NCBI GenBank assembly: GCA_963827275.1
Contig: CAWHAA010000005.1
Coordinates: forward strand, 320,001-384,000
Direction of reading: 5' to 3'
From: an uncultured Spirochaetota bacterium
GTDB lineage: Bacteria; Spirochaetota; UBA4802; UBA5550
Length of the DNA: 64,000 nt
Notes under the pieces: generated by a model
Told to the model about the DNA's origin: nothing
The model's database searches: none
What the model saw: the letters and a program-made list of their open reading frames with translations, nothing else
Translations under genes and position numbers: made by a program
Shown here: positions 909-38,961 of the stretch, piece by piece
Layout of the letters: each line of letters opens with the position of its first letter
How positions within the stretch are numbered: position 1 is the stretch's first letter

Positions 909-2567
909 TCATTTTATTGCTCTGACACCCTCAATCTCCCGGAGTATCCGCTTCATGTCATCCGGTGAAATATTCCCGCGCCCGAACTTGTACGAATATA
1001 TTTCTTCTTTTATTCTGTCAATGGCGGCCCCGCTGGCATCCGGGCTTCCGGCCCCGTCCCTGCGCGCCTGTTCAAGCGATTTCTCTGCCGCCTTCAGGAA
1101 CCCTTCGCCGTCGCCACGGTCAATGCAGCGGGCCGCCTCGGCGTGATAGTCCTGCTCCGCGCGCGCGGGCCGTTCCTCCTCCTGCCGCCGGTCGCCCTCG
1201 TGCCCGTGAACGACCAGCCGGTACCGCTTCCGCTCCCAGACCACAACGAAGACGATCGCCCCCGCCAGCGCAATGACAATAAGGGCAATATAGAGGGGAT
1301 TGAAATCGACACGCTTCTCCTTCTCCTCGTCAAAGCGGGCCCCCTGCCGGGCGCCGTCGCCTTTGGCGGTAAAGGAAATCTCTCCGGACAGGGCGGTCTC
1401 ATACTTCCCGCTTTCAGGGTTGAAGAAGGTGAACCTGAAGCGCCCGGGGTTCATGAGGCCGGCCTTTTCCGGCACCAGGGTATAGATATATTTCTTGCTC
1501 CCCCGCAGCCTGCCTCCGTCGATTTTGATAGCGCTTTCTCCTTCCTCCGCTATCACCTTGAGGCCGGGCACTTCGCGCTCGAGCGAGGGCTTCGTCATGG
1601 TGACCAGGTTGCCCGCCCCCTCCACCGTCACGGCGATTTTTTTCTCATCGTACACCCTGACTTCGCCATCCGGGCTGTCAGCACGGATGGTGAAACTGCC
1701 GATATCGCCCTGGAAGGTATCAGGCCTGCCCTGCTCCGGCAGCGGCACAATCGCGATGGATTTGGTGTCAAAGGGGAGGACCTGGGTACGGGTGAAGCCG
1801 GGAACATTCATACCGAAAAATTCATCTATACGGCGGCGCGATGACGTCTCCACTGCCAGGAGCGCCGACCCCCCGCCGACGCGGTAGCTCCCCGCGCCCG
1901 CCGGTATCAGCGCGAAGGTGGCGATGTGCGCCCTGGCGTACTCTCCCTCGCGCCCCTGTTCGCCGAGCGCGGGGTCATCGATCATCTTTATCGCGAACCC
2001 CTTCGTGTCAGGGAATTGATTGAAGCGCTGGGCGCTCGCGCGCAGCCCCGCAGTGAGCAGGTAATATCTCATGATGACGGGCTGTCCCACGTAGGCGGTA
2101 CCGGAGGAAAGCTCCACCGAGGACCTGATGTCCGCAATGGCGGACCCGCCCCCATCGGCCGGGGAGCCGCCGCCGGCCGCCACCGTGAGGGAAACCTCTT
2201 CAGAGAGGAGCCTCTCTTTTCCGCGCTGCAGAACGAGCGGGGGGATCCGGTAGCGTCCGGCCTTACGGGCGGTCACGGAGAAAAGAAGCTTCACCCCCGA
2301 CCAGGACCTGCCGTTGACATACTCATAGCTCTGTTCCATGCCGCTGTACTCGATCGTAAGCCCGGGGACGGACGGGTACTGCACCGGCTTAATCCCGTCT
2401 GCATCGCCGGAGAGCCTGATACGGAGCATGGTCGAGTCGCCCACCTCAATGGAAGATTCCTCGATCTCGGTTTCAAGCCGCGCCGCGCCGTACGCGCCGG
2501 CGGCGTTGAGCGCGAGTATCGCGCAGAGCAGGATCTTACCAGTATTTTTCAAGCTTTCTCTTTTCAT
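909..2567 (-). CDS. batD: BatD-family protein
   Basis: Signal peptide, SYEYVNG and GDIGSF motifs, C-terminal TM helix; last gene of the Bat cluster. Confidence 0.8.
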   Translation of the reverse strand: MKRESLKNTGKILLCAILALNAAGAYGAARLETEIEESSIEVGDSTMLRIRLSGDADGIKPVQYPSVPGLTIEYSGMEQSYEYVNGRSWSGVKLLFSVTARKAGRYRIPPLVLQRGKERLLSEEVSLTVAAGGGSPADGGGSAIADIRSSVELSSGTAYVGQPVIMRYYLLTAGLRASAQRFNQFPDTKGFAIKMIDDPALGEQGREGEYARAHIATFALIPAGAGSYRVGGGSALLAVETSSRRRIDEFFGMNVPGFTRTQVLPFDTKSIAIVPLPEQGRPDTFQGDIGSFTIRADSPDGEVRVYDEKKIAVTVEGAGNLVTMTKPSLEREVPGLKVIAEEGESAIKIDGGRLRGSKKYIYTLVPEKAGLMNPGRFRFTFFNPESGKYETALSGEISFTAKGDGARQGARFDEEKEKRVDFNPLYIALIVIALAGAIVFVVVWERKRYRLVVHGHEGDRRQEEERPARAEQDYHAEAARCIDRGDGEGFLKAAEKSLEQARRDGAGSPDASGAAIDRIKEEIYSYKFGRGNISPDDMKRILREIEGVRAIK

Positions 2568-12330: not shown

Positions 12331-12630
12331 CGCGGGTCAGAGCAACCCGTTTACCGATAACTATCGGTCAGACAAGGTGCCAGAGCAAGCCATTTCTATG
12401 TTATAGGGATAGTTATCGGTAGTTAGAGAGTCAGAGTAATCCAAGGATGGCCTATCATATTGACATTTATCGGTAAAATGTCTGATTTTGCTCTGACACT
12501 TGGCTGTCCACCATATCGAAGGGGTTTACCACCGATAGTTATCGGTTACTCTGACCCCGGAATAACAAGTCAGGAGATGCATGCTGCCGATAACTATCGG
12601 CAGCATGCCCAATTTACTCTGACCCCCGGT
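12331..12630. repeat. Family-A repeat cluster (CCGATA-NN-TATCGG palindromes plus CTCTGACCCC motifs)
   Basis: Palindromes at 12353, 12408 (partial), 12531 and 12587; CTCTGAC motifs at 12334 (rc), 12429 (rc), 12490, 12547 and 12614. Confidence 0.85.
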
Positions 12631-14479: not shown

Positions 14480-15727
14480 TTATGACGCAGATTCGATCAT
14501 TTTTATGATCGCCATGGCATTGAGGACCGCCTTGGGCACAAAAGAAGAATGCAGGGCAAATTCCTGCTCCTTGCTGCCGTCGGGTGCATGCTCGGAGCAA
14601 TGGGGATTGCCTCCCGAGGGGCCCAGGCCGTCAATGGTCGGCATGAAGTCCCAGAAATAATTTCCATCAGACAACCCCCCGCGTTTCTCCAGGTGGACGG
14701 TGAGCCCGAGAAGCCTTCCCGCCGCCTCCCAGAATGAATGCAGGCGCGATGAGCCGGAATTGTCCGGCCACGCGGGCACCCTGCGCACCAGTTCCGCCGA
14801 AGTCCGGCAGGAAAATCCGCCCACCGCACTCGATACGCTGGTATAGCCGTCCAGCGCGAGAATATCAGCAAGGGCTCTGTCGAACACGACGGGAGAAAAC
14901 GCCCGCATCTCGGCATGTGCCTCGGCAAAATGGGGCACGCGGTTTATCTGCGAACCGCCGGCGATTTTGCCCACGTTCACCGTAAGATCGTTCGCATAAT
15001 CCGTTATGGATTCGATCTTCCTGACCACGTCGGCCATCTGGACGATGGCGCTTGCGCCCTTTTTGTGGGAAACGCCGGAATGGGCTCCTTTCCCTTCCGT
15101 GGTAATCCTGATTTCCGCCCTGCCCTTCCGCGAGGTGACCACGTAATAATCCGCGCCGCGCGCGATCCCCGCCTCGAAGATAAGGCACCCGAGAGCGTCC
15201 GCGCCGAGGCGTTTTTTGCACAGCTCGCCGAAATCAACCGAATCGGTCTCTTCTGACGCGTCAAGCAGAAGCGTCCACGATACGTCATCAAATACATCCG
15301 GCGCGGCATACCGGAGCGCCTCCAGTGTCATGAGCATGACGATGGTGCCGCCCTTTATGTCCTCGGTGCCCGGGCCGTAAATGCGGTCGCCGTCGATGCG
15401 CCAGCAAAAATCATTCCGCTCCTCTTCCTCCGGGCTGAAAACAGTATCGAGGTGGGACGCACAACCGATAGTTATCGGTCCTTTCCCGGTCCGGGAAAGG
15501 ACGAGGTGGTCCCCATACAATGGATTCACAGAAGGGACCCGTTCATCGGCAAACCCCAGGTGGCGCATTGCGCCTGCCGTGTAGTCGGCAAGGCGGTTGA
15601 CTCCCCCGGGGTTCATGGTGTAGGAATTTATCCCCACCATGTCACGGAAGGTGTCCATGTAGCGGGGCATGTTTTCTTCAAGGTAGGCGCGCATGCGCAT
15701 TGCTGCCGCAGAATCAAAATACTTCAT
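14480..15727 (-). CDS. M20 metallopeptidase, glutamate carboxypeptidase-like
   Basis: SHLDTVF, GPGTEDIKGG, SEET, GGLSDGN, DGLGPSGGNPH. Confidence 0.85.
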   Translation of the reverse strand: MKYFDSAAAMRMRAYLEENMPRYMDTFRDMVGINSYTMNPGGVNRLADYTAGAMRHLGFADERVPSVNPLYGDHLVLSRTGKGPITIGCASHLDTVFSPEEEERNDFCWRIDGDRIYGPGTEDIKGGTIVMLMTLEALRYAAPDVFDDVSWTLLLDASEETDSVDFGELCKKRLGADALGCLIFEAGIARGADYYVVTSRKGRAEIRITTEGKGAHSGVSHKKGASAIVQMADVVRKIESITDYANDLTVNVGKIAGGSQINRVPHFAEAHAEMRAFSPVVFDRALADILALDGYTSVSSAVGGFSCRTSAELVRRVPAWPDNSGSSRLHSFWEAAGRLLGLTVHLEKRGGLSDGNYFWDFMPTIDGLGPSGGNPHCSEHAPDGSKEQEFALHSSFVPKAVLNAMAIIKMIESAS

Positions 15728-16843: not shown

Positions 16844-16908
16844 TTGCTCTGACTCCCGGGATCTACCGATAACTATCGGTCCAATAATGATCCCCTTACT
16901 CTGACCCC
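16844..16908. repeat. Family-A repeat unit
   Basis: TTGCTCTGACTCCC, ACCGATAACTATCGGT (16865-16880), TTACTCTGACCCC (16896-16908). Confidence 0.85.
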
Positions 16909-20712: not shown

Positions 20713-20813
20713 ACATCGAGTGGCGAAATTTATCCTTTACCATTGAAAAATCATTTATCGAATTATCATTCCAATTCGTTAATCCTGTAATCAATTTCAA
20801 GGAAGGATTAATT

Positions 20814-21260
20814 ATGATGATTCAAACGACAATCAATATCCATAAAACAACTCTTGAAAAAATTACTCATGCCTCACTCCATTCCGGTGTTTCCCGCAAC
20901 CAGTTAATAATAAGGCTTTTAAAAAAAGAGATGAATATTGTACAAAATAATTTTAAACATGGTAAAAGAATACAATACCAGGGAAGGGACGGGGCGAAAA
21001 ACTGGCACACATTTCACCTGCAACTCAGGCCGGATGATTATGAATATTTTTTGGACTTGAGGAAGTTGTTTAAAATGTCGATTTCGCGTATTCTTGCAAT
21101 AGCGGTTGCTAAATATCTACAAGATATCAAAAACAAAATTACCGATAACTATCAATATAGAAACTACATTATAATAAAAGACATAATTGATGATGTCATA
21201 TGCTGGAAACTCCTATGGGGATTCCCCAAAACTCCGGAACTGCTATTTTCCCCCCACTAG
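20814..21260 (+). CDS. Hypothetical protein with ribbon-helix-helix-like segments (DUF1564-like)
   Basis: TTINIH...GVSRNQLIIRLL and FHLQLRPDDYEYFLDLRKLFKMSISRILAIAV; AAGGA RBS. Confidence 0.7.
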   Translation: MMIQTTINIHKTTLEKITHASLHSGVSRNQLIIRLLKKEMNIVQNNFKHGKRIQYQGRDGAKNWHTFHLQLRPDDYEYFLDLRKLFKMSISRILAIAVAKYLQDIKNKITDNYQYRNYIIIKDIIDDVICWKLLWGFPKTPELLFSPH

Positions 21261-21385: not shown

Positions 21386-23152
21386 GTGTCGAAACCTGAC
21401 CCCACAAAGCTTGCCGACTGGCAGATTGCCGAAGAATGCGAAAAAAGCATGAAAACCGTGTACCAGCTCGCTGAAGAGCTGGGGATACAAAACGAGGAAC
21501 TGCTGCCCAATAGCCACTATTATGGTAAAGTCGATTTTGAGCTGGTACTCGAGCGCCTGAAAAACAGGCCTGACGGTAAATATATTGACGTTACCGCCAT
21601 TACCCCTACTCCGCTGGGCGAAGGGAAAAGCACCTCAACCATCGGTCTTCTCCAGGGTCTTGGCAAGCGCGGAAAAAAGGCCACCGGCGCCATACGTCAG
21701 CCATCGGGCGGGCCTACAATGAACATTAAGGGGAGCGCAGCCGGCGGAGGGCTGTCGCAGTGTATTCCCCTCATCCCATTCTCTTTCGGCCTTACCGGCG
21801 ACAACAATGACATCATGAACGCGCATAACCTCGCCATGGTGGCCCTTACCGCACGGATGCAGCATGAATTCAATTACGACGACGCAATGCTCGCGTCCAA
21901 GAAACTCCGGCGGCTCAGCATCGATCCGCGCAGCGTCGAAATGGGATGGGTCATCGATTTCTGTGCGCAATCTCTCCGTAAAATAATGATCGGGATGGGA
22001 GGACCATCCGACGGCTTCCTCATGGAATCAAGATTCCAGATCGCGGCGAGTTCCGAGTTGATGGCGATCCTGGCGGTATCATCAAGCATGGCCGATATGC
22101 GGGAGCGCATCGGAAGGATTGTCATCGCGCACAGCAAGAGCGGCACCCCGGTCACCACCGCCGACCTCGAGGTGGACGGCGCCATGACAGCCTGGATGTT
22201 CAACACGCTCAAGCCGAACCTTTTGCAGACGCTTGAGGGCCAGCCCCTGTTCGTGCACGCGGGTCCGTTCGCGAATATCGCGATAGGCCAGTCGTCGATC
22301 GCCGCCGACAAGCTCGCCCTCAAGCTTTCCGATTACCATGTTACCGAAAGCGGCTTCGGCGCAGACATCGGCTTCGAGAAATTCTGGAACCTGAAATGCA
22401 GGATGAGCAGACTCAAGCCGCACTGCGCGGTCATCGTCGCGACCGTACGGGCGCTCAAGAGCCACGGCGGGGGCCCTCCGGTCCCGCCGGGCCATCCCCT
22501 CGACCCCGTATATACAGAAGAAAATGTTGCGATGGTTGAAAAAGGATGCGCCAACCTGATACGTCATATCCAGACCGTGAAAAAAGCGGGGATAAATCCG
22601 GTGGTATGCATCAATCCATTTTCTACAGATACAAAAACGGAGATCGCGGAGATCAAGCGGCAGGCCGAGGCAGCGGGTGCCCGCGTTGCGGTTTCCCATC
22701 ACTGGCTCAAAGGCGGCGACGGCGCCCTTGAACTCACCGACGCCGTTATCGATGCCTGCGCTGAAAAAACGAATTTCAAGTTCCTCTATGACCTTGAAAT
22801 GCCGCTTTCCAGGCGTATAGAAACGATCGCGAAAAAAGTGTACGGCGCCGACGGTGTTAAATACCTGCCCGATGCCGAAGAAAAACTGAAGAAAATTGAC
22901 CGCGATCCCGAGTTGGCAAAGCTCGGCACCTGCATGGTCAAAACGCATCTTTCCCTGTCCCATGATCCGAACCTGAAAGGTGCGCCTACCGGCTGGGTCC
23001 TCCCCGTGAGGGACATCATCATCTTTCGCGGTGCGGGTTTCGTGGTGCCGGTTGCCGGAGCGATAAGCCTGATGCCGGGAACGGCGTCAGACCCGGCATT
23101 CAGGAGAATCGATGTTGATCTCAATCGGCGGAAGGTGACAGGAGTGTTTTAA
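21386..23152 (+). CDS. fhs: Formate-tetrahydrofolate ligase
   Basis: [47 protein letters not shown] before GTG 21386. Confidence 0.96.
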
Positions 23153-23213
23153 CGATAGTTATCGGTAACATTATAATAATTAATATCATTACATGGGGGG
23201 AGGGTGACGGATA

Positions 23214-24017: not shown

Positions 24018-24086
24018 CTTTATATATACATTTCTCGTGATTTGTTTTAGATATTCATATTCTTTGATTTCTCATCTCTTCTTCTC

Positions 24087-24123
24087 CCCGATAGTTATCG
24101 GTTCTATACCGATAACTATCGGG
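24087..24123. repeat. Inverted doublet of family-A palindromes
   Basis: CCCGATAGTTATCGGT-tctat-ACCGATAACTATCGGG; the arms are exact reverse complements. Confidence 0.9.
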
Positions 24124-24161
24124 ACAACTACTCAAAGCACGCCATTTTTCAGAAATTAATC

Positions 24162-24222: not shown

Positions 24223-24225
24223 ACC

Positions 24226-26209
24226 ATGACGCCCCACACTGTTACCATCGCGCCAGATGCCATCGAAATAACGGTCCCCCACGGCGAGAACCTCCTCCGC
24301 GCCGTGCATGCGGCGGGCGTGCACGTCAACTCCTCATGCGGCGGCCAGGGCACATGCGGGAAATGCCGGGTGCGGATCCTGAGCGGATCCCCTGAAGGCG
24401 GCAGGACCGAAAAAATATCAAACGAAGAATACGCAAAGGGCTACCGGCTCGCCTGCCTGACCCATGTTGAAACATCCCTGAAGGTGGAGATCCCGCCCGA
24501 CTCGCGCCTCCACCGCGGGGTCCTGGACAGGTCCCGCGTGAAATCACCTACCGGCAGGCTGGCGACCGCGCGGGCGGTGGACCTGCCCGGCGCGGATCAA
24601 AGAAGCCTTGTTGTTGAAAAAAAATTCATCACCATAGATCCGCCCACGATCGAAGATAACGCGAGCGACCTGTCGAGGGTCTGCCGCGCGCTCAAAAAAC
24701 AGCACGCCATCAAGGACGCCGAGGTCGATTACCCGGTCCTGCTGAAGCTCTCCCGGGCGATACGCGAAAACAACTGGCAGGCAACCGTTACAATTCTGAA
24801 GGACGGGACGGAGGCGCTTCCCGAAAACAGGCGCTCTCAGATCATCCGCATCCAGCCGGGTGATACGACCGGCCGCCATTTTGCGGTCGCGGTCGATGTG
24901 GGCACCACGACGATCTGCGGAGAGCTCATCGACCTCATAAAAGGGGAAACCATCGCGGATTCATCGGAATATAACGGGCAGATAAAGTTCGGCGAGGACG
25001 TAATCACCAGAATGGTTTTCGCGCAGAAAAACGAGGGCCTGGTCATTCTGCAAAAGACGGCGGCGGATACGATCAACACCGTCATCGATTCGCTGCTCAC
25101 GAAAGGGAACATCGACCGCGCCGACATATCCCACATCACTGTTGCGGGAAATACCGCCATGACGCACATCCTGCTCGGGCTTGACCCGCGGTATATCCGC
25201 TCCGCGCCCTATACGCCCACGGTCAACCAGATGCCCCCTGTCAGGGCGATCGAAATCGGGCTCGGGCTCCCCGGCCACGCGCGCCTCACCGTCATGCCGC
25301 TTATATCAAGCTACGTGGGGGGCGACATCGTGGCCGGCGTCCTTGCCTCCGGACTGCACCGACGCAGCGCCAACACGCTCTTCATCGATATCGGCACCAA
25401 CGGCGAGATCGTTGTCGGGAACCGGGAGTGGCTCGTCACCGCGTCCTGCTCCGCAGGCCCGGCGTTCGAGGGGGGCGGCATCCGGCACGGCATGCGCGCC
25501 ACCTTCGGCGCCATCGAGGAGGTCCGCATCGACCCCGGCACCTGCGAACCGGTGGTCTTCACGATCGGCGGGGAAAAGCCGAAGGGCATCTGCGGCTCCG
25601 GCATCATAAACATCGTGGCCGAATTTCTGGAAACAGGCCTGCTCGAGCCCAACGGCAGGTTCAGGACCGATCTCTCGACCGGCAGGCTGCGGCAGGGCCG
25701 CGACGGCATGGAATTCGTCCTGGTCACGGCCGACCGGAGCGGAATTGACGGCGACATCGTCATCACCGAGGTTGACATCGACAACTTCATGCGCGCCAAG
25801 GGCGCACTCTATGCCGGCTACCAGACGCTGCTTGAGAGCGTGGGTCTTTCGTGGACGGACCTCGACGAGGTGATTATCGCCGGGGCGTTCGGGAGCTACG
25901 TGGACATCGAGAAATCGATCATCACCGGGCTCTTCCCCGACCTCCCGGTGGAGCGCTTCAGCTTCATCGGCAACAGCTCGCTCCAGGGGGCCCGGCTCGC
26001 GCTGCTGTCGCGCGAGCTGCTCGACGAAGCGAATGGGATCGCGGCGAAAGATGACGAACATCGAGCTGAGCGACCACAAATCATACATGGACCACTACGT
26101 GGCGTCGCTCTTCTTCCCCCACACGGAGCTTAGAAATTTCCCGACGGTCATGGAGCGGTTCAAGAATATCGAACGCATGTGCAGCGACAACAAAGGAGAC
26201 AGCGAGTGA
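24226..26209 (+). CDS. acsV: Reductive activator of corrinoid proteins (RACo, 2Fe-2S plus ASKHA domain); frameshift near 26048
   Basis: CGGQGTCGKC, DVGTTT, DIGTNGE, SAGPAFEG, GICGSG; removing one A at 26047-49 restores MTNIELS...YVASLFFPHT. Confidence 0.9.
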
Positions 26210-26961
26210 GCACCATCATAGCGGTCGCCGGCAAGGGCGGCACCGGAAAAACGACAACGGCGGCGCTGATCATACGGCACCTCCTTAAAAAGGGGAAAAC
26301 GCCGCTCCTGGCGATGGACGCTGACCCGAACGCGAACCTGGCGGATTCACTGGGGATCAGCGTGCCCGACACCATCGGGTCCGTGCTTTCGGACTTCATG
26401 CGCAAACGGGCGGAGCTCCCGGCGGGCATGACCAAGCAGGCCTATCTCGACATGCAATTTCACCAGATCCTGAAAGAAGGCAAAGACATCGACATGCTCG
26501 TCATGGGATGCCCCGACGGGCCCGGGTGCTACTGCGCCGCCAACTCGATCCTTAAAGACTACTTCGATAACCTTTCGAAAAATTATCCTTATATCGTGGT
26601 GGATAATGAAGCGGGCATGGAGCACTTCAGCCGGAAGACGGCGGCCCATATCGACACGCTCATCTTCTGCTCCAATTATTCCCTGAAGGGCCTGAAGACT
26701 GTGAAGACGCTTGCTGAAATGGTAAAAGACCTGAAAATAGACGTCCGGGAACGCTACCTGCTGGTCAACCGCACTCCCGAGACCCTTGAACCTGCGTTCC
26801 TGGAGAGCATCAGGGAGACCGGCATTCCATTCCTCGGGCATACCGTCATGGATACCGAGATCGAGGAGTCGGAAATCAAGGGGATACCGCTGATCGATAT
26901 GCCGGACAGCTCGAAGACCGTGCAGAGGATCGAGGAGATGCTGAACAAAATAATCCCATGA
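26206..26961 (+). CDS. cooC: CooC/AcsF-type nickel-insertion ATPase
   Basis: GKGGTGKT, DADPNANL, GPGCYC, DNEAGMEH; GTG overlaps the acsV stop. Confidence 0.92.
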   Translation: MSTIIAVAGKGGTGKTTTAALIIRHLLKKGKTPLLAMDADPNANLADSLGISVPDTIGSVLSDFMRKRAELPAGMTKQAYLDMQFHQILKEGKDIDMLVMGCPDGPGCYCAANSILKDYFDNLSKNYPYIVVDNEAGMEHFSRKTAAHIDTLIFCSNYSLKGLKTVKTLAEMVKDLKIDVRERYLLVNRTPETLEPAFLESIRETGIPFLGHTVMDTEIEESEIKGIPLIDMPDSSKTVQRIEEMLNKIIP

Positions 26962-26972
26962 GATCGCACAAT

Positions 26973-26998
26973 CCCCCCTGTCCCCCCGAGGGGGCACG
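26973..26998. repeat. Family-B hairpin repeat (single copy)
   Basis: CCCCCCTGTCCCCCCGAGGGGGCACG. Confidence 0.8.
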
Positions 26999-27032
26999 AG
27001 GGAGATAATTATATCTGATAAACATGACATGT

Positions 27033-27458
27033 ATGATACAAGGAATAAGCCATATAACATTGATTGTTAACGACATCGAAAAAACAGCGGATCTCTTCCG
27101 TAAAATATTCGATGCGCGAGAAGTTTATTCAAGCGGGGATGATATTCATTCCCGATCAAGCGAAATATTTTTTTTGGTCAATGACGTCTGGTTCGCATTA
27201 ATGCAGGGGAATTCATGCCAGGAAAAAACGTATAATCATGTTGCATTTAAAATCAGCGATGACGATTTCGGCATCTACTCAAAAAAGATTGCAGAAATGG
27301 GCCTGGTAACAATTAAAGACAGGAAAAGAATGCCCGGAGAAGGAAAATCCATATATTTTTACGATTATGACAATCACCTCTTTGAGCTGCATGCCGGGAC
27401 CCTGGAGGAAAGATTGGAGCATTATAAAAAGGAATCGCCGACCGTTCAGCAGTCGTAA
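27033..27458 (+). CDS. fosX: FosX-family fosfomycin resistance hydrolase (VOC fold)
   Basis: GISHITLIV, EVYSSGD, TYNHVAF, GEGKSIYFYDYDNHLFELHAGTLEERL. Confidence 0.85.
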   Translation: MIQGISHITLIVNDIEKTADLFRKIFDAREVYSSGDDIHSRSSEIFFLVNDVWFALMQGNSCQEKTYNHVAFKISDDDFGIYSKKIAEMGLVTIKDRKRMPGEGKSIYFYDYDNHLFELHAGTLEERLEHYKKESPTVQQS

Positions 27459-27504
27459 GAGCCGATCAGCACAATAATACCATGACAGGCATAACAAACG
27501 AATA

Positions 27505-28461
27505 ATGATCCGCACCATGAACACATTGGGCTGCAACTCAGTACCATTTCTCTTTATAATCGATTTTTTGATGAAAAAACCGGTCATCATCCCATTGTCC
27601 GACATCAAAGAATCCGAGATACTTTTTGACATCAATGGCATTACCAACGCCCCGGCATCTACCCGTACCGGGAGCGCGGCGGCGTTGAAGAAATATCCCC
27701 CCTCATATGCACACTATTCAACTGCTTTTGCAAAAGTGCAGGAACACCAGATGCGGGGCGACTCATATCTCCTGAACCTGACATTTCCGACCCCCATAGA
27801 AATATCCCTCACGCTCCGGGAGCTATACTTCCTGAGCAGAGCGCGTTATAAAATATGGTTCCGGGACATATTCCTTGTCTTTTCACCCGAGTCCTTCATC
27901 CGGATAGAGGACGGACGCATCTCGTCCTACCCCATGAAAGGCACGATCAATGCCGCCATCCCGTGCGCCGAAGAGATTATTCTGGGCGATGAGAAGGAGT
28001 TCTCGGAACACCTGACCATCGTCGACCTTATACGGAATGATTTGAATATAGTTGCCGACAACGTTACCGTTGACCGGTTCCGTTATGTGGAGCAGGTACG
28101 CACCTCTGATTCGACGCTGCTGCAGGTCAGCTCGCAGATTTCCGGCGACCTTCCTTCAGACTATCAGGGAGACATCGGGAGCATTATCACCGCGCTCCTG
28201 CCGGCCGGATCCGTGAGCGGTGCGCCAAAGAATAGAACCATTGAGATTATCAACGAGGTTGAGAACTATGACCGTGGCTATTATACCGGCGTTGCAGGTT
28301 ACTTCGACGGGTCGAATCTCGATAGTTGCGTCATGATACGGTATATTGAGCAGATCGGCGGGACACTCTGCTATAAAAGCGGCGGCGGCATAACGGTATA
28401 CAGCGACCCGAAATCAGAATATCAGGAGCTCATCGACAAAGTGTATGTGCCGATTGTTTGA
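27505..28461 (+). CDS. pabB: Aminodeoxychorismate synthase component I (short type)
   Basis: GDSYLLNLT, FSPESF, PMKGTI, IVDLIRNDL, PAGSVSGAPK, KSGGGIT. Confidence 0.9.
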   Translation: MIRTMNTLGCNSVPFLFIIDFLMKKPVIIPLSDIKESEILFDINGITNAPASTRTGSAAALKKYPPSYAHYSTAFAKVQEHQMRGDSYLLNLTFPTPIEISLTLRELYFLSRARYKIWFRDIFLVFSPESFIRIEDGRISSYPMKGTINAAIPCAEEIILGDEKEFSEHLTIVDLIRNDLNIVADNVTVDRFRYVEQVRTSDSTLLQVSSQISGDLPSDYQGDIGSIITALLPAGSVSGAPKNRTIEIINEVENYDRGYYTGVAGYFDGSNLDSCVMIRYIEQIGGTLCYKSGGGITVYSDPKSEYQELIDKVYVPIV

Positions 28462-29038
28462 ATCCATACGGATAAAGAACGGCGTTCCGGATAACCTTCA
28501 ATATCACTCACGCCGGATGAACGCCTCACGTCATGAGATCTTTGGAAAAAATGAGGAGATCCGGCTGGCGGAAGCAATAATTGTTCCGCCCGAATACCAG
28601 ACCGGCACCGTCAAATGCCGGGTCGTGTATGGAGAAGAAATTGACTCAATATCCTTCGAGCATTACCAGAGACGAACGATCCGGAGTTTAAAGCTGATTC
28701 GGTCCGACGATGCGTTCTATGAGCATAAATTATGCGACCGGAGCCTCTTTGAGCAGCTTTTACTGGAACGCGGGACCTGTGATGACATCCTGATCCTGAA
28801 GAACGGCATGATCACAGACACCTCGTTCAGCAACGTGGCTTTTTTTGACGGGTCGGGATGGATCACGCCCGTGTCGCCTCTTCTGCGCGGCACGAAGCGA
28901 GAAAAACTTCTGGACGACGGTATTATAGAGGAAGAAAATGTTCATGTATCTGATCTGGGCCGTTTCAGGCATCTCAGTCTAATAAATGCCATGCTGGACA
29001 TCAGGGATGTCATCATTAATGTTGACAGAATCATGTAG
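28445..29038 (+). CDS. pabC: Aminotransferase class IV, probable 4-amino-4-deoxychorismate lyase
   Basis: LFESIRI, HSRRM, ITDTSFSN, LLRGTKR, INAM; overlaps pabB. Confidence 0.78.
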   Translation: MCRLFESIRIKNGVPDNLQYHSRRMNASRHEIFGKNEEIRLAEAIIVPPEYQTGTVKCRVVYGEEIDSISFEHYQRRTIRSLKLIRSDDAFYEHKLCDRSLFEQLLLERGTCDDILILKNGMITDTSFSNVAFFDGSGWITPVSPLLRGTKREKLLDDGIIEEENVHVSDLGRFRHLSLINAMLDIRDVIINVDRIM

Positions 29039-29085
29039 TGGCCTCTAAGTGTATCTGTTTCTGAGAGATACAAAGGGAGTAAATA

Positions 29086-29979
29086 ATGACGGCAACAATC
29101 ATCAGCGGAAAAGATATCGCCGCGCAGATACGGGAAGAGCTCAGGGCCGAAGTGGCCGGTCTTTCCGCGAAGCACAACATCAGGCCGGGCCTGGTGACCA
29201 TCCTGGTCGGCGACAACCCCGCCTCGGTCAGCTACGTGACCGGAAAGCAGAAGACCGCGCACGAGCTCGGGTTCCACTCCATCCAGGTGACCCAGCCGGC
29301 CGATATTTCCGAGGAAGAGCTGCTGAAGCTCGTTGACCGGTACAACAACGACCCGGCCATCCATGGCATACTGGTGCAGCTCCCCCTGCCGAAGCACATC
29401 AACGAGAACCGGGTGCTGTACGCGATCGACCCGGACAAGGACGTGGACGGGTTCCACCCCGTGAACGTCGGCAGGCTCATGATCGGGGACGCGCGCTTCT
29501 ATCCCTGCACGCCGTACGGGATACGGGAGATGCTGACGCGCGCCGGGGTGCAGATCGACGGCGCGGAGGTGGTCGTGGTGGGACGGAGCAACCTGGTGGG
29601 CAAGCCGATCGCGATGATGCTGGTGCAGAAGCAGAAAGGCGCGAACGCGACCGTGACCGTGTGCCATACCCGCACCAGGGACATAAAAGCCCACACCCTG
29701 CGCGCCGACATCCTGATCGTGGCCGCGGGCGCGCCCAACTCGGTGACCGCAGACATGGTGAAGGACGGCGCGGTGGTCATCGACGTGGGCGTGAACCGCG
29801 TGGGCGTCACCGCGGAAGGGAAAGCAATTCTAAAGGGAGATGTGGACTTCGAAGCGGTCAAAGAAAAGGCGTCGATCATCACGCCGGTCCCCGGGGGCGT
29901 GGGCCCCATGACCATCACCATGCTGATGAAGAACACGGTGCGGGCCGCGAAGCTCGCGGCAGGGATGACGCTGGATTAA
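29086..29979 (+). CDS. folD: Methylene-THF dehydrogenase/cyclohydrolase
   Basis: GILVQLPLP, KDVDGFHP, PCTPYG, GRSNLVGKP, TPVPGGVGPMT. Confidence 0.97.
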   Translation: MTATIISGKDIAAQIREELRAEVAGLSAKHNIRPGLVTILVGDNPASVSYVTGKQKTAHELGFHSIQVTQPADISEEELLKLVDRYNNDPAIHGILVQLPLPKHINENRVLYAIDPDKDVDGFHPVNVGRLMIGDARFYPCTPYGIREMLTRAGVQIDGAEVVVVGRSNLVGKPIAMMLVQKQKGANATVTVCHTRTRDIKAHTLRADILIVAAGAPNSVTADMVKDGAVVIDVGVNRVGVTAEGKAILKGDVDFEAVKEKASIITPVPGGVGPMTITMLMKNTVRAAKLAAGMTLD

Positions 29980-29980
29980 T

Positions 29981-30051
29981 GCCCCCTGGCCCCCGCAGGG
30001 GGCACGCATGTCAGGTTGATTCCCTGATGCCCCCTCGGGGGGACAGGGGGG
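29981..30051. repeat. Inverted pair of family-B hairpin repeats
   Basis: GCCCCCTGGCCCCCGCAGGGGGCACG ... TGCCCCCTCGGGGGGACAGGGGGG. Confidence 0.8.
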
Positions 30052-30076
30052 AGTAAAAGGATAAAAGGGTATTATA

Positions 30077-30295
30077 ATGGAATACAAAACAATCGAGAAA
30101 AAAGACGCGGCCGGCAACATGGTAAAGGTCCTTGACGCGACCTTCGAGCCGGGAACGCCGGAAACAAAAGGCGTCGGCGAAGACAGGGGCTGGCGCAGGC
30201 ACATGACAGATAAAAGTGAGATGCTGAAATACCTGAAAAACGGCGAGCGGTACTGGTATTCTCACGAGTGGTACGGGAGCGAGAAGAAACGATAA
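30077..30295 (+). CDS. Small hypothetical protein inside the acs cluster
   Basis: 72 aa with an aromatic-rich C-terminus; co-oriented between folD and acsD. Confidence 0.72.
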   Translation: MEYKTIEKKDAAGNMVKVLDATFEPGTPETKGVGEDRGWRRHMTDKSEMLKYLKNGERYWYSHEWYGSEKKR

Positions 30296-30304
30296 ATCAT
30301 GCAA

Positions 30305-30324
30305 GCGGGGTCACGTGACCCCGC
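30305..30324. repeat. Family-C perfect palindrome upstream of acsD
   Basis: GCGGGGTCACGTGACCCCGC just before the AAGGAGG RBS. Confidence 0.85.
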
Positions 30325-30343
30325 CTTTCCAAGGAGGACCATC

Positions 30344-31288
30344 ATGGCATTTGAAGCACCGAAAATAAATTACGCGGGAAAGATCAGGGAGATCACACTG
30401 GGCGCGGGCCCGAAAGCGGTCACCGTGGGCGGCGCCACATCCTACCCCTTCCACCTATTTGAAGGGGCCATGCCCCATCCGCCCCGCATCGCCATGGAGG
30501 TCCCGGACTACAAGCCCGAAGACTGGGCCGAGGCGGCCACCGCCCCCTTCGCGGACGTCCTGGATGACCCGGCGGCGTGGGCAAAGAAAAACGTCACCGA
30601 GTACGGTGCGGACATGATCGCCCTGCAGATGGCGAGCATCGACCCCAACGGCATGAACCGGCCGGCGCGGGAAGCGGCCGACATCGCCAAAAAAGTCATC
30701 GCGGCGGTTGATGTGCCGGTGATCCTCTGGGGCGTCGGCAACCATGAAAAGGACACCGAAGTGCTGCGCATCCTTGCGGAAGAATGCGAGGGTAAAAACC
30801 TGGCGATGGGGCCTGTCGAGGAAGGCGACTACAAGCAGATCGGCGCCGGCGCCCTCGCCTACAAGCACGTGGCCATCGCTTCATCGCCCATCGACGTGAA
30901 CCTTGCCAAGCAGCTTAATATACTGCTCGGGAACCTGGGCGTGCCCGCGGACAAGCTCCTGGTGGACCCCACGACCGGACCGCTCGGCTACGGGCTCGAG
31001 TACACCTACTCGGTGATGGAGCGCGACCGGATGGCGGCCCTCACCCAGGAGGACGAGAAGCTCCAGTATCCCCTCATCTGCAATGTCGGATCTGAAGTAT
31101 GGAAAACAAAGGAAGCCAAGATGTCCGCCTCCGACGACCCGAAGCTGGGCGACGCGAAGGAGCGGGGCATCCTGCTCGAATGCATCACCGCGATGAGCCT
31201 CCTCATAGCAGGGGCGGACGTCCTCATCTTGAGGCACCCGGAGTCGGTGAAGCTTATCAGGAAGATGATCAAGAATTTGATGGAGTAG
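30344..31288 (+). CDS. acsD: Corrinoid Fe-S protein small (delta) subunit
   Basis: PFHLFEG, SPIDVNLAKQLN, DPTTGPLGYGLEY, ILRHPES. Confidence 0.95.
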   Translation: MAFEAPKINYAGKIREITLGAGPKAVTVGGATSYPFHLFEGAMPHPPRIAMEVPDYKPEDWAEAATAPFADVLDDPAAWAKKNVTEYGADMIALQMASIDPNGMNRPAREAADIAKKVIAAVDVPVILWGVGNHEKDTEVLRILAEECEGKNLAMGPVEEGDYKQIGAGALAYKHVAIASSPIDVNLAKQLNILLGNLGVPADKLLVDPTTGPLGYGLEYTYSVMERDRMAALTQEDEKLQYPLICNVGSEVWKTKEAKMSASDDPKLGDAKERGILLECITAMSLLIAGADVLILRHPESVKLIRKMIKNLME

Positions 31289-31453
31289 CCCCCCTGTCCC
31301 CCGTAGGGGGCACGAAAGAGGGAGCTGGAAGTATAAAAAACGCAAATCAGGGTCATCATATAAAACAAAGCAGTGAAACAGCATCATATACAATTGATTT
31401 TGAATTATTACAAAATGATTGATCCCTCACGCCCCCTCTGGGGGACGGGGGGG
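31288..31453. repeat. Inverted pair of family-B hairpin repeats around an AT-rich spacer
   Basis: CCCCCCTGTCCCCCGTAGGGGGCACG (31289-31314) ... CGCCCCCTCTGGGGGACGGGGGGG (31430-31453). Confidence 0.8.
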
Positions 31454-31472
31454 GAGATAACAGGAGCACCAC

Positions 31473-33419
31473 ATGTCAGAAGAAACCAAACTCTTTGCCG
31501 ACAAGGCATCGCAGGAAATATATGAAAAAGCAAAAAGAGACGGCGTCAACACGGTCTTCGACAAGGCGGCCGAGCTCAAGGCCTGCCCGATCGGGTCGGC
31601 AGGCGACTGCTGCAAGCACTGCGGCATGGGCCCCTGCCGGGTGCCCGAGCCAAAGTCGCCGGGGGCGGTACGCAAGCTCGGACTGTGCGGAGCAACGGCA
31701 GAGACCATATCCGCGCGCAACTTTTTACGCATGATAGCCGGCGGGGCCGCTGCGCACTCCGACCATGGCCGCGGCGTTGCGGAGATCTTCCTGTCCGCGG
31801 CGAAGGGCGAGATCCCCGGCTACGGCATCAAGGACGAGCAGAAGCTCCTGGCCCTCGCGCTCGACTTCGGCATCGCCATCGAGGGAAAAGACACGAAGGC
31901 GATCGCCATCGAAGTGGGCCAGAAGTCCCTGGCCCTGTTCGGCCAGCAGGACGGGGAGATCATGTATGTCAAGAAGGCGCCGCAGCGGCGCCAGGAGATA
32001 TGGAAGAGAGAGGGCGTCACGCCGCGCGGCATCGACCGCGAGGTGGTCGAGGTCATGCACCGCACCCACATGGGCGTGGACCAGGACTACCGGAGCCTCA
32101 TGAAGCAGGGAACCCGCGCCGCGCTGGCGGACGGCTGGGGCGGCTCGATGCTCGCCACCGACCTCCAGGACATCATGTTCGGCACGCCGGTGCCGTCTAT
32201 GCGGAAGTGAACCTCGGCGTGCTCAAGAAGGACGAGGTGAACATCATCGTGCACGGCCACGAGCCGCTCCTCTCCGAGATGATCGTGATCGCCTCGCGCG
32301 ACCCGAAGATGCTCGAGATGGCCCGTTCACACGGCGCCAACGGCATCAACATCGCGGGCATCTGCTGCACGGCCAACGAGATACTGATGCGCCACGGCAT
32401 CCCCATCGCCGGGAACTTCTTACAGCAGGAACTCGCCATCACCACCGGCGCGGTGGAGGCGATGGTGGTGGACGTCCAGTGCGTGATGCAGTCGCTCCAG
32501 AGCGTTGCGGCCTGCTACCACACCAAGCTCATCACCACCAACCCGAAGGCGGACATCACCGGGTCAGTGCGCATGGAGTTCAACGAGCACGACGCGCTCA
32601 ACTCGGCTAAGGCGATCGTCACCGCGGCCATCGAAAACTTACACGAACCGCTCGAGCGACGTGCTGATACCGAAGGCGAAGGCGCCCATGATCGCCGGCT
32701 TCAGCCACGAGACCATCAACTACATGCTGGGCGGCACCTTCCGGGCGTCGTACCGGCCGCTGAACGACAACATCATCAACGGGCGGATCAGGGGGCTCGC
32801 CGGCGTGGTGGGCTGCAACAACGCCCGCACCGCGCTCGACAGCAACACGCTGATACTGGTCAAGGAGCTGATCAAGAACGACGTGCTGGTCCTGACCACC
32901 GGGTGCACGGCCATCGGCCTGGGGAAGGAGGGCCTGCTCACGCCGGAGGCGGCGCGCGAATTCGCCGGGCCCGGCCTCGCCGAGGTGTGCGAGACCGTGG
33001 GCATCCCGCCGGTCCTCCACATGGGCTCCTGCGTGGACAACAGCCGCATCCTGATCGCGGCCACGGCCGTGGTGAAGGACGGCGGCCTGGGCAGCGACAT
33101 CAGCGACCTGCCCGCCGCGGGCGCGGCGCCGGAGTGGATGAGCGAGAAGGCGATCTCCATCGGGCAGTACTTCGTGGCGTCGGGCATGTACACCGTATTC
33201 GGCGTCACCTGGCCCACGTCGGGCAGCAAAGAGCTCACGAAGCACCTGTTCGAGGACATGGAAAAGATATACGGCGGGCGGTGGGACTTTGCCATCGACC
33301 CGAAGGAGATGGCGCGCAAGATGATCGAGCATATCGACCGGAAGCGGAAAGAGCTGGGCATCGACAAGGCGCGCGAGCGTGTGCTGTTCGACATGGCTGA
33401 CAGGCGGGAGCTGGTGTAA
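31473..33419 (+). CDS. cooS: Anaerobic CO dehydrogenase catalytic subunit; frameshifts near 32195 and 32640
   Basis: CCKHCGMGPCR, AAHSDHGR, VHGHEP, GICCTANE, DVQC, GCNN, GSCVDN and WMSEKA spread over three consecutive frames. Confidence 0.93.
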
Positions 33420-33449
33420 GACAAACACATCACCCCCGCACCCTTCTCT

Positions 33450-33521
33450 CCCCCCCCCGGCCCCCGCAGGGGGCGGTTGAAGCAGGAAGTATAACGTCCC
33501 CCCTCCGGGGGATTTAGGGGG
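33450..33521. repeat. Inverted pair of family-B hairpin repeats (variant)
   Basis: CCCCCCCGGCCCCCGCAGGGGGCG ... GTCCCCCCTCCGGGGGATTTAGGGGG. Confidence 0.7.
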
Positions 33522-33571
33522 CCTGAGTGGAATAGATATGTTGAAGATAAAATGTTGTACGGAGGAACATT

Positions 33572-35777
33572 GTGTCGAAAATAATCGCATCTGCCGCGAT
33601 ACGCGGCGCATATAGCATCGTCGACCGCGCGGAAGCGGACGTAAAACGCGCCATCGACGCGTACGGCCCGAACAGGGAGGTCGCGTTCCCGAACACGGGC
33701 TACTACCTGCCCGTCATCTACGGCATCCTCGGCTACAAGGTGCAGAAGCTTGCCGACATGGAGCATGTCATCAGGGTGAGCAAAAACCTCCTGCCGCCGC
33801 CGGTAAAGGAGAGCCACCATCTCCCCTACCTCGGACCGATCCTCGACGCGGGAATGGCGACGTTTTTCGCGGAGGAGATGCATCGAGGCGATAAAGTATA
33901 TCGACAACCCCGCAGTGTACGTGCCGGGAGAAGACCCGCGCGAGGACAACATCTGGCTCGGCGCCGCTGACGACGTCATCATGCGGAAGCGGGGCGTGGA
34001 GTTCGTCGACGGCACTGCCCCGGGGTTCGCGGCCATGCTGGGCGCTCCCGGAGACCCGGCGGTCGCGGAGAAGATCGCGCTGGAGCTCCAGGAAAAGAAC
34101 CTCTACGTGTTCATGAGCGCCAACACCGGCGGGAAGACCATGTCCGAGCAGCTCGTCGAGCGCGGCGTGCAGATCGGCTGGCCCACGCGCCTTGTCCCCT
34201 TCGGGAAGGATGTGAGCGCCACGGTCTTTTCCATCGGGTTCGCCACGCGCGCGGCCATGTCCTTCGGCGGCATCGAGCCGGGCGACTACCGGAAGATCCT
34301 CATCTACAACAAGGACCGCGTCTTCGCCTTCGGCATCACCTTCGGGTTCGTGAGCGACGAGTGGTACGCCAACGGCGCCGGCTGCATCAACTACGGCTTC
34401 CCCATCATCACCGACACGCCGACCCCGCAGATACTTCCCACGGGCGTGTGCACCTACGAGCACGTGGTGTCAAACGTCCCGCACGAGAACATCGTCTCGA
34501 AGGCGGTCGAGGTCCGCGGCCTCAAGGTCACGGTGAGCAAGGTCCCGGTCCCGGTGGCGTACGGGCCGGCGTTCGAGGGCGAGCGGGTGCGCGGCGACGA
34601 CATCTTCCTCGAGGCGGGCGGCGGCCGCACACCGGCGGTGGAGCTGATCGTGTCAGCGGACATGAACGCGGTCACCGACGGGAAGATCGAGGTCGTCGGC
34701 CCCGAGATAACCGACGTGAAACCGGGGAGCCAGCTCCCCCTGGCCATCCTCGTGGAGGTGGCGGGGCGGCAGATGCAGTCGGACTTCGAGCCGATCCTCG
34801 AGCGCCAGATCCACCACCTTATCAACTACGCCCAGGGGATCATGCACATCGGCCAGCGCGACATCGCATGGCTGCGCGTGAGCAAGCAGGCGGTCGACAA
34901 GGGCTTCCGCATGGCGCACCTGGGGAGCATCCTCCACGCCAAGCTGCACCAGGACTTCGGGAAGATATTCGACAAGGCGCAGGTCACGATATATACGGAC
35001 GAGGCGAAGGTGAAGGAGGTCCTCGACAGGGCGCGCGCCCTCTACAAGCAGCGCGACGAGCGGATCGCCGGCATGACCGACGAGGACACGGACCCCTTCT
35101 ACTCCTGCCTGCTGTGCCAGTCCTTCGCGCCGAACCACGTGTGCGTGGTCACCCCCGAGCGGACCGGCCTGTGCGGCGCGTACAACTGGCTCGACTGCAA
35201 GGCCTCCTTCGAGATCAATCCCACCGGGCCGAACCAGCCGGTGCACAAGGGCGCAGTGCTCGACGCCCGGTACGGGCGGTGGAAGGGCGTGGACGACTTC
35301 GTGGCGAAGGCCTCGCGCGGCACGGTACAGACCGTTGACGCCTACAGCATCATGCGCAACCCGATGACCTCGTGCGGGTGCTTCGAATGCATCGCCGCGA
35401 TCCTTCCCCTGTGCAACGGCATCATGACCGTGGACCGCGACACTGCCGCGATGACGCCGTCGGGCATGAAGTTCACCACGCTCGCGGGCATGGTGGGCGG
35501 CGGCAACATCACCCCGGGCTTCGTGGGCCACAGCAAGTACTACATCACCAGCAAGAAATTTCTGAATGCGGAGGGCGGCATTAAAAGGCTCGTCTGGATG
35601 CCCAGGGCGCTGAAAGAACAGATACGGGAGCAATTCAACCAGCGCGCGGCCGAGATCGGCGTGCCCGATCTCCTGGACAGGATCGCCGACGAGACGATCG
35701 GCACCTCCGAGGAAGAGATACTCCCCTTCCTGACGGAAAAAGGGCACCCGGCGCTGACGATGGACCCGTTGTTTTAA
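33572..35777 (+). CDS. acsB: Acetyl-CoA synthase; frameshift at about 33881
   Basis: FPNTGYYLP, YSCLLCQSFAP, GLCGA, PMTSCGCFE; removing C33881 joins EEM-IEAIKY. Confidence 0.95.
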
Positions 35778-35787
35778 CGATACATAC

Positions 35788-35827
35788 CCGCGTGAAGGCG
35801 GGGTCACGTGACCCCGCCTTCACGCGG
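35788..35827. repeat. 40-bp perfect palindrome (extended family C) upstream of acsC
   Basis: CCGCGTGAAGGCGGGGTCAC|GTGACCCCGCCTTCACGCGG. Confidence 0.9.
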
Positions 35828-35855
35828 ACGAAATCATAATTCAGGAGACGCTACC

Positions 35856-37192
35856 ATGGGAATGACCGGCATCGAAATCTACAAACTCTTACCCCAGACA
35901 AACTGCGGCGATTGCGGCGTGCCGACCTGCCTTGCCTTCGCGATGAAGCTCGCGGCGGGACAGGCGGAGCTGGCGAAATGCCCGCACGTGTCCGATGCGT
36001 CAAAGGCCAAGCTTGATTCCGCGTCCGCGCCGCCGGTGCTGCCGGTCTCCATCGGCGCCTTCAAGACAGGCGGAGAGACGGTGCTCTTCCGGCACGAGAA
36101 GACCTTCGTGAACCCGACGGGGATTGCCGTGCTGGTCACCGACGCCATGAGCGATACTGACGTTGACCGGCGACTGAAGGCCTTCGCGGAGCTCCGCTAC
36201 GACAGGGTGGGCATGCTCCTCGCGGCCGACCTGGTCGCGGTCAAATCCACCAAAGGAGACGCGGCCGCGTTCGGCAAGCTCGTCGCAGAAGGTGGCCGGC
36301 GCGGTCGACGCGGGGCTGATCCTCATGAGCGAGAGCGCGGACGTGCTCGCCGCCGGCCTCCCGCATGCCGCGGGGAAAAAGCCGCTCCTCTACGCGGCGA
36401 CGAAAGCGAACGCCGACGCGGTGGCGAAGCTCGCCCTTGACAACAAGTGCCCCGTGGCGGTGAAGGGAGCGGACCTGGACGAGGTGATCGAGCTCACCCA
36501 GAAGCTGGCAGGCATGGGAATAAAAGAGATCGTGATCGATTCGGGCTCGCGCTCGTTAAAGAAGGCCTTCGCAGGACCAGGTCGCCATCAGGAGGGCGGC
36601 GATCAAGAGCGCCTTCCGGCCCCTGGGCTACCCGACCATCGCGTTCCCGTGCGAGATGGCGAACAACTTCATGGAGGAGACCCTGATCGCGTCCGCCTTC
36701 GTCGCCAAGTATGCGGGGATCGTCGTCCTCTCGGACCTGCGCGGCGAGGGGCTCTTCCCGCTCCTCGTGCAGCGGATGAACATCTTCACCGACCCCCAGC
36801 GCCCCATGGCCACCGAGCAGGGGATCTACCCGATCAACAACCCGGACGAAAACTCGCCGGTCATGGTAACCACGAACTTTTCCCTCACCTACTTCATCGT
36901 GTCGGGCGAGATCGAGGGAAGCCGCGTCCCCGCGTGGCTCCTGGTCATGGACTGCGAGGGGCTTTCGGTGCTCACCGCGTGGGCGGCGGGCAAATTCGTG
37001 GGCGACGCCATCGGCGCCTTTGTGAAAAAATCCGGCATCACCGAGAAAGTGAAGCACCGCTCGATCGTGATCCCCGGGTATTCCGCGGCCATCAGCGGCG
37101 ACCTTGAAGAGCAGCTGCCGGACTGGAAGATAACCATCGGCCCGAGGGAAGCGGCTCATATCCCGGCATTCCTGAAGCAATACCAGGCGTAA
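35856..37192 (+). CDS. acsC: Corrinoid Fe-S protein large (gamma) subunit; frameshifts near 36286 and 36572
   Basis: LPQTNCGDCGVPTCLAFA, LFRHEKTF, NIFTDPQRP, TTNFSLTY, GLSVLTAWAAGKF, GPREA. Confidence 0.94.
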
Positions 37193-38793: not shown

Positions 38794-38961
38794 TTACTCT
38801 GACCCCGGGTTTTCCGGGGTTTTCACCGATAGTTATCGGTAGCCCGGTTACTCTGACCCCGTATTGCACCGATAGTTATCGGTAACTCCGGCCTCACGGT
38901 TTGACATATGCCACATGATGTACCGATAACTATCTCCATGGTGCCTGTTTGCTCTGACCCC
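38794..38961. repeat. Family-A repeat array
   Basis: TTACTCTGACCCC at 38794 and 38848, TTGCTCTGACCCC at 38949; ACCGATAGTTATCGGT at 38825 and 38868; ACCGATAACTATC at 38922. Confidence 0.9.

Follow-up and report, generated by a model that had tools for sequence, protein, structure and literature searches.

Positions 38794..38961 of the window, the whole 64,000-nucleotide stretch of Spirochaetota DNA analysed here, raise the question of what kind of element alternates two short repeats, B and A, upstream of a flavodoxin-like gene (window 39052), and what made it. The host genome (G000) comprises 4.13 Mb in 11 contigs and is 92% complete. The array consists of the following parts.

38794..38806, plus strand: B site 1, a TIR-type motif whose reverse strand fits GGGGWSAS
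38825..38840, plus strand: A site 1, an imperfect palindrome
38848..38860, plus strand: B site 2, forming with A site 2 the common 42-44-bp B-A unit
38868..38883, plus strand: A site 2
38922..38937, minus strand: A' site, inverted, with the conserved 13-mer intact and the outer arm gone
38949..38961, plus strand: B site 3
38824..38884, plus strand: 61-nt A-B-A stretch identical to G000:C1:43465

Layout of the array and distribution of its sites

The order B-A-B-A-A'-B given in the initial annotation was borne out (B at 38794, 38848 and 38949, all on the plus strand; A at 38825 and 38868; an inverted partial A at 38922), as was its pairing of a directional with a near-symmetric site, the two standing at fixed spacing. 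The spacers, in order 18, 7, 7, 38 and 11 bp, keep to the range of 7-38 bp described there but, contrary to that annotation, are not unique: 61 nt including spacers recur exactly at C1:43465, and sites and spacers were therefore copied as one. Freshwater sequencing run X8 (record 23), which represents another strain, yielded one contig covering 37898-40100 with 26 differences and 1 gap; since this contig spans the array, the array is not an assembly artefact. No length change was seen at the array in the sequencing-run comparison. The array folds better than 200 of 200 shuffled sequences (z -5.1), and an Rfam search of it returned no credible match, only a single chance match with an E value of 0.76. 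At the orthologous locus, one relative (G009) carries B-A-A'-B, one unit shorter, and 13 other relatives carry neither motif, which marks the array as a local insertion with amplification and not as a conserved control element. The spot upstream of the flavodoxin-like gene (loci L159-L171) holds other palindromic repeat families in several species and is a hot spot of repeat insertion.

Further sites of both kinds in the window include the following.

917..929, plus strand: single B site with 1 mismatch
12333..12626: second mixed A/B array, between two minus-strand genes
15464..15479, plus strand: A site in frame in an M20 peptidase gene (peptide PITIG), an example in coding sequence
16844..16908, plus strand: B-A-B array in a divergent intergenic region
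23151..23166, plus strand: isolated A site at the FTHFS gene end
24087..24123: inverted pair of A sites

The recurrence of the same grammar at 12333-12626 and 16844-16908 agrees with the initial annotation. With up to 3 mismatches allowed, the window has 22 strand-matches to A (shuffle mean 0.43); with up to 2 allowed, it has 12 to B (shuffle mean 2.24). Neither count was reached in any of 100 shuffles. The recurrence foreseen outside the window was found in the genome census, in which 247 A cores and 180 B sites fall into 170 clusters. An order-4 Markov model predicts 6.3 A cores and fewer than 0.05 copies of the two exact B 13-mers; A and B are the most over-represented 12-mers of the genome. 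Many clusters are plain tandem arrays, whether the repeated unit is the 42-44-bp B-A unit (up to 10 copies), a 22-bp A unit or a 20-21-bp B unit. With gene positions taken from our own rough gene caller, 190 of 232 A sites (about 81%) and 162 of 180 B sites (90%) were intergenic, with enrichment in convergent gaps, and 49 intergenic regions held both motifs against 8.6 expected. The site profile gives 42-76% conservation for the outer arm of A.

The centre of A lies about 15 bp past B in either orientation, with a B-A spacing of about 8 bp, and 59 fused B-A units were counted in 28 one-kb bins. Such fusion is seen in this genus, with a single case outside it, in G028; family f6, which has both repeat families, shows none. 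The constant spacing may be functional or inherited from a single founder. The sigma-28 promoter consensus has a -10 box similar to A and a TAAA about 20 nt upstream of it. A was rejected as a promoter of this type, TAAA being present at offsets 19-21 upstream in 3 of 232 sites with no peak. A scan for A was run on 11 of the 64 parts of a wider sequence collection, and the best 80 of 119 loci were considered; among the matches listed, the recurring or multi-match records were Spirochaetota or 'Leptospirales' where assigned, and the rest were scattered single matches.

Three further observations concern G000. At G000:C4:635962-637692 an A/B array lies in frame within a predicted protein and gives repeated TDNY and GSEQ peptides; at G000:C10:358103-362596 an A/B array separates two divergent dprA homologues about 3 kb apart; and a Wood-Ljungdahl cluster with FTHFS, RACo and ACS/CODH genes occupies window 21365-37107 of this spirochaete.

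Site B and the RAYT-type transposase genes

No transposase gene was seen in the window, but the genome carries six RAYT-type HUH (Y1) transposase genes, five of which form one clade with B adjoining. The sixth belongs to another clade (G000:C4:639930-640184; L006) and has a different repeat in its flanks, a palindrome in tandem 22-bp copies, of which the genome has 38 sites. The Y1 proteins are 184-199 aa long, combine the HUH motif with the class-2 YxxxNP (Y---NP) motif and have NF047646 as best NCBIfam match at 64-80 bits (cut-off 80). Of 32 Y1 genes in the loci compared, 27 have B no more than 200 nt upstream. For the 19 Y1 genes with B on both sides, taken from 34 non-duplicate loci with two misplaced starts left out, the nearest B flanks were inverted in 9 and direct in 10; in G000 they were direct in four of five. 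A appears near the five G000 genes only once, in imperfect form.

A recent Y1 duplicate consists of two copies of about 870 bp that differ at 2 bases and whose shared sequence runs only from B to B. Contigs of runs X1, X8 and X10 stop at or near its ends, with depth about doubled. Four runs, three of which contain the same two copies, showed neither an empty site nor a circle of the Y1 cassette. Strain X1 lacks one 21-bp B module from an array. At least seven exact B copies were found in 25 of 61 genomes, all with the Y1 clade, 0 B copies in the 14 of 61 without it, and fewer than seven exact copies in 22 that have it; the genomes are related, and these co-occurrence counts, like those for A below, overstate. 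B very probably belongs with this Y1 clade.

The reverse strand of B starts GGGGTCAG and meets the consensus GGGGWSAS. According to PMC3733652, TIR repeats with this consensus surround TIRYT genes, and cleavage of the repeat by the enzyme is a proposal there. B therefore matches a described repeat family, an outcome that the initial annotation had itself named as refuting a new system; of that proposed undescribed system, A and its cognate gene stand and B does not. By analogy the Y1 enzyme may nick at B, and among the suggested roles in recombination, nicking or loading, it is nicking that fits a site flanking HUH transposase genes. Like B, the TIRtrons (PMC3733652, PMC6006769) carry GGGGWSAS, flank HUH-Y1 genes with the same tyrosine motif and occur dispersed as singles, dimers and clusters. 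They differ from B, which in this genus is joined to an unrelated second site and also lies in frame within genes, and may differ in flank orientation, the B flanks scored being direct as often as inverted. They may differ in the C-terminal domain too: subclass 2.1 TIRYT members of TnpA-Y1 have a C-terminal helix-turn-helix (Bac_DnaA_C, HTH_23 or HTH_28; PMC6006769), and a Bac_DnaA_C search of G000 found dnaA only and no DnaA-C helix-turn-helix in the short Y1 proteins. G000 also carries a further G/C-rich repeat that fits GGGGWSAS, at 61 sites.

Site A and the tandem ribbon-helix-helix gene RHH2

The search for gene families that co-vary with motif count, as the initial annotation had advised, gave the Y1 clade for B and a second family, RHH2, for A. 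The two counts are independent in 60 relatives, with 103 A and 0 B in G017 and 0 A and 33 B in G032, and the motifs are fused almost only in this genus; the idea of A and B as one obligate system was accordingly dropped. RHH2 is represented in the window as follows.

20775..20780, plus strand: WTCGTW motif, putatively promoter-like, common to RHH2, Y1, comM and radC
20814..21260, plus strand: RHH2 gene for a 148-aa single-chain tandem ribbon-helix-helix protein, one of 10 G000 copies and a candidate A-binding protein
21141..21153, plus strand: A site internal to the RHH2 gene, with fixed codons for TDNY

In most A pairs about 340-475 bp apart in the relatives, a gene of about 150 codons carries one site internally and has the other upstream. 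Of 45 RHH2 genes, 16 have A no more than 200 nt upstream. The internal site was scorable in 64 of 76 RHH2 genes, and its codons are nearly invariant: GAT in 64 of 64, AAC in 55 of 56, TAT in 59 of 60 and ACC in 41 of 43, against 77%, 33%, 70% and 27%, respectively, elsewhere in the same genes. Other conserved RHH2 columns are mostly near background codon use, with a few at 0.67-0.77. An inverted internal A, encoding TDSY, also occurs. At least seven exact A sites were found in 28 of 61 genomes, all with RHH2, and the 24 genomes without RHH2 have 2 A sites in total; nine genomes combine RHH2 with fewer than seven exact A. Four of these nine (G023, G044, G050 and G060), whose RHH2 is divergent, hold 10-16 copies of an A variant with both flanks swapped, which is found within and upstream of the RHH2 gene too. 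Few sites of either variant occur in G042, G048, G049, G055 and G038 (7 sites in the last) despite 12-78 RHH2 copies. G042 and G049 have 47-78 RHH2 copies. A very probably belongs with RHH2.

RHH2 is patchy, being present in 37 of 61 relatives at 1-78 copies and in 28 of 301 phylum genomes, 27 of them within this order. Of 13 genomes, 8 have it as an interruption between umuD and umuC and the other 5 lack it there; in G000 the cassette at this place (C1:130075-131500; L204) has its own promoter-like motif, which might drive umuC. Sequence common to four RHH2 copies of G047 spans from the upstream A to the gene end. A cassette bounded by the upstream and internal A sites was rejected, homology running on to the end of the RHH2 gene. 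Eight genomes with multicopy RHH2 have no Y1 clade of the B type. The protein looks cytoplasmic and has no linked uptake receptor.

The predicted RHH2 structure (pLDDT 82) consists of two ribbon-helix-helix units and a hairpin. In the fold comparison it came closest to the F relaxosome, chain E (PDB 9f0x; Z 10.2, rmsd 3.1, 95 residues, 10% identity); Foldseek with the model gave no match at E 0.001 or better, and a PDB sequence search with the RHH2 profile gave only weak CopG matches (E about 0.08). In bioRxiv 10.1101/2024.12.19.629322, TraY is described as a single-chain RHH dimer and three TraY copies are reported; from these three copies and from its length, chain E is probably TraY. RHH2 resembles F TraY in the relaxosome in its predicted single-chain tandem RHH fold and in a candidate binding site at fixed distance from an HUH-enzyme site, and differs in its extra C-terminal hairpin, its chromosomal and multicopy genes and the separation of A and B in other genera. 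RHH2 as a nuclease or recombinase was rejected: its distant homologues do not keep the Tyr and His that all close homologues share, and no catalytic residue is invariant in the family. The C-terminal hairpin was barely covered by the fold search. Direct binding of RHH2 to A is considered likely.

Gain of A in coding sequence bears on how the site spreads. A is in frame in 30 predicted genes, a small number of which are inserted arrays, doubtful gene calls or gene ends; shuffled words yield 0.18 sites. Words one mismatch away from A are rare. Of the peptide positions able to carry A, with two giant repeat proteins omitted, 28 of 90 do so (0.76 expected); the corresponding figures for the two B 13-mers are 7 of 56 and 0.05, and reversed control words gave 0. 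The giant proteins, at G000:C7:270754-283704, have 96-residue repeats with an A core in 16 units. At the codons for PIVIG in carB, exact A is present in 7 of 17 A-rich genomes and a sequence one base off in 3 more, the remaining 7 having 2-4 mismatches; 0 of 13 A-free genomes come within 1 mismatch (one genome in the comparison is without the segment). A second gene compared in the same way has an A site only in this genus. Transposition cannot place A in an invariant CarB peptide, and selection or drive on the word itself is therefore needed.

DUS/USS and HIP1 are short exact words that build up in coding sequence through point changes and form pairs in intergenic gaps. A is like them in its gain by point change in coding sequence, its few one-mismatch neighbours and its pairing in gaps; unlike them, it is much sparser, regional and set in tandem arrays, and its candidate reader is a multicopy RHH protein whose gene carries its own site, not a surface receptor or methyltransferase.

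WTCGTW was found upstream of 9 of 10 RHH2 and 5 of 5 Y1 genes, against 109 of 3507 genes (3.1%) overall. The best further matches precede comM (G000:C5:287937), an ORF6N gene (C5:632041), radC (C2:273508), a lamin-tail-domain gene (C4:389183) and a PLD-domain gene (C2:270458). These genes form a candidate competence or DNA-stress regulon on the strength of the shared motif. The link to competence is partial, since WTCGTW was not found within 130 nt upstream of the two dprA genes, recA or the one scorable comEC, and other high-scoring matches (NAD kinase, queC, lolA) are unrelated.

A parallel to RHH2 was found in DUF1564 (PF07600), to which RHH2 was pointed by an Atlas feature score of 0.90. 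RHH2 itself scored below the cut-off on PF07600, and an hhalign comparison was colinear over 96 columns at a probability of 37% (11% in another comparison), which suggests weak homology; DUF1564 has the same predicted topology and top fold match as RHH2. Its genes are multicopy in 12 of 151 phylum genomes, with fixed codons at the place matching the RHH2 site (GGA in 22 of 22, GTT in 19 of 19) that form part of a palindrome also present in the gene flanks. A 12-mer of this palindrome, whose form was partly known before the test, has 53-199 copies in all 12 DUF1564 genomes. In the remaining 139 genomes, four of which belong to the same family and do not have the gene, it has 0-4. That family is taken to be the Leptospiraceae, from the range of PF07600. 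A table row in PMC5722270 also underlies the assignment. DUF1564 of Leptospira resembles RHH2 in its dispersed multicopy genes, tandem-RHH topology and codon-fixed abundant palindrome with a central A-GT-T; RHH2 differs in having no PF07600 score, and the two site sequences are not the same. Judged from sequence, the coupling of site and gene seen for A and RHH2 extends to DUF1564 with another palindrome. Literature searches covering few subscription journals found the TIR/TIRYT and TraY papers and no description of A, RHH2 or a DUF1564-repeat link; the available portions of PMC3493377 and PMC4243447 contained nothing informative on A/RHH2 or the DUF1564-repeat link. B adds a new member to the known TIR-type repeats, and A with RHH2 and the DUF1564-repeat link appear to be undescribed.

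Spread of the sites and competing readings

The reading of the array as a tandemly amplified mosaic of two independent site families that spread by molecular drive is given an even chance of being right. DNA with an A or B site would be favoured on recombination and the sites would spread. The transposase would nick and rejoin DNA at B, and RHH2 would bind A as double-stranded DNA; expressed with DNA-uptake genes, RHH2 and Y1 would bias which incoming or recombining DNA stays. From such a bias would follow new sites by point change, amplification of 20-22-bp modules and spread of site-carrying cassettes. More speculatively, RHH2 standing at a constant distance from B may help the nicking in this genus, like TraY in the relaxosome. 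Drive during transformation as the actual cause is a serious prospect, though the odds lean slightly against it. Uptake sequences are far denser than A, which has 232 sites in 4.1 Mb (about 55 per Mb) and leaves large zones empty.

Drive alone does not account for the avoidance of origin and terminus. In G000, A and B arrays are absent from contig C2, which carries dnaA, and from C6, where GC skew reverts. In the near-complete G016, with zone bounds set after the data had been viewed, 2 of the 74 clusters listed (covering 100 of 112 sites) lie within 0.6 Mb of dnaA and 0 at 3.60-4.32 Mb opposite. Sites in coding sequence are zoned as well (near, 24 of 60; far, 4 of 30; p=0.015). No strand bias of sites relative to replication was evident by eye in 50-kb bins. 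The 13-bp near-palindrome matS is confined to part of the chromosome and has an RHH-containing reader, MatP. A shares with matS/MatP the 13-bp near-palindrome, the restriction to a chromosome domain (arms only, in G000 and G016) and a candidate RHH reader, and could likewise be an architecture signal, RHH2 binding along the replichore arms, host selection keeping the sites and B arrays following. The zoning of arrays and of coding-sequence sites speaks for such a signal, and origin by point substitution fits selection. It is nonetheless unlikely: RHH2 is patchy across the relatives, reaches up to 78 copies and acts as an inserted cassette, and arrays turn over between species; A avoids both terminus and origin with hundreds of sites, and its gene is patchy and mobile at 0-78 copies, in which the system departs from matS/MatP. 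In two DUF1564 genomes that start at dnaA, the analogous motif leaves only modest gaps of 641 kb and 333 kb around the origin, a weak echo of the zoning, and is present near mid-chromosome with no terminus gap.

More doubtful still is the view that A and B are ordinary REP-like non-autonomous elements copied by RAYT-type enzymes, with A a passenger hairpin and its presence in RHH2 incidental. REP, REPIN and BIME elements with RAYT are like the array in being short intergenic repeats in two-unit mosaics with enrichment in convergent gaps and a Y1 enzyme, and the intergenic shares of both sites, the tandem and mosaic arrays resembling BIMEs, the 61-nt piece copied between loci and the better-than-shuffled folding all suit this view. 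The conserved GTAG/CGTC tag of REP hairpins was not found in the profiles, however, and B is non-palindromic and forms no hairpin. A goes with the gene of a non-catalytic RHH protein, is gained synonymously in core genes and has an outer arm too weakly conserved for a good hairpin substrate. The A-rich genomes G021, G045 and G038 are without this Y1 clade, insertion cannot place A in the invariant PIVIG of carB, and codons are fixed within two gene families, RHH2 and DUF1564.

A role for A as a transcription-factor operator, by which RHH2 would repress itself through upstream and intragenic sites and run a regulon, is rated a little lower again. It draws on the predicted RHH fold, on the RHH2 genes with A shortly upstream and on the G047 copies, whose shared sequence starts at the upstream A. 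Against an operator, sites are also found mid-gene, between convergent genes and in tandem arrays of ten units; the orthologous promoter region is without sites in 13 of 14 relatives; and the many RHH2 copies are left unexplained. A CRISPR-like or other spacer-acquisition array, suggested by the alternation of repeats with short spacers and already dismissed in the initial annotation, is refuted by spacers shared with another locus and has next to no probability. The uneven spacer lengths, whole units in tandem elsewhere, the lack of a credible Rfam match and the failure to find cas1 in this 92%-complete genome also count against it.

A broader proposal is offered tentatively, as one that would more probably fail than hold. 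RHH2 and DUF1564 may represent a new class of selfish element without a transposase, in which a DNA-binding gene that carries its own site, induced with DNA-uptake genes, drives that site into the chromosome, core coding sequence included and on the replichore arms only; here the site would have been joined to an HUH site as a mini relaxosome-like unit, and the abundant Leptospira palindrome would be the DUF1564 site.

The wider question is what makes and keeps short bacterial repeats that have no transposase of their own. For B, these results supply a testable candidate substrate of the TIRYT enzymes, whose activity is a proposal in PMC3733652. For A, three tests tie the repeat to a candidate reader: a codon-fixed copy in the gene, the joint presence or absence of site and gene from genome to genome, and sequence that covaries. 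By this rule DUF1564, a family of Leptospira paralogues of unknown function, gains a candidate binding site, and silent changes in carB and other core genes point to molecular drive beyond the known uptake-sequence lineages.
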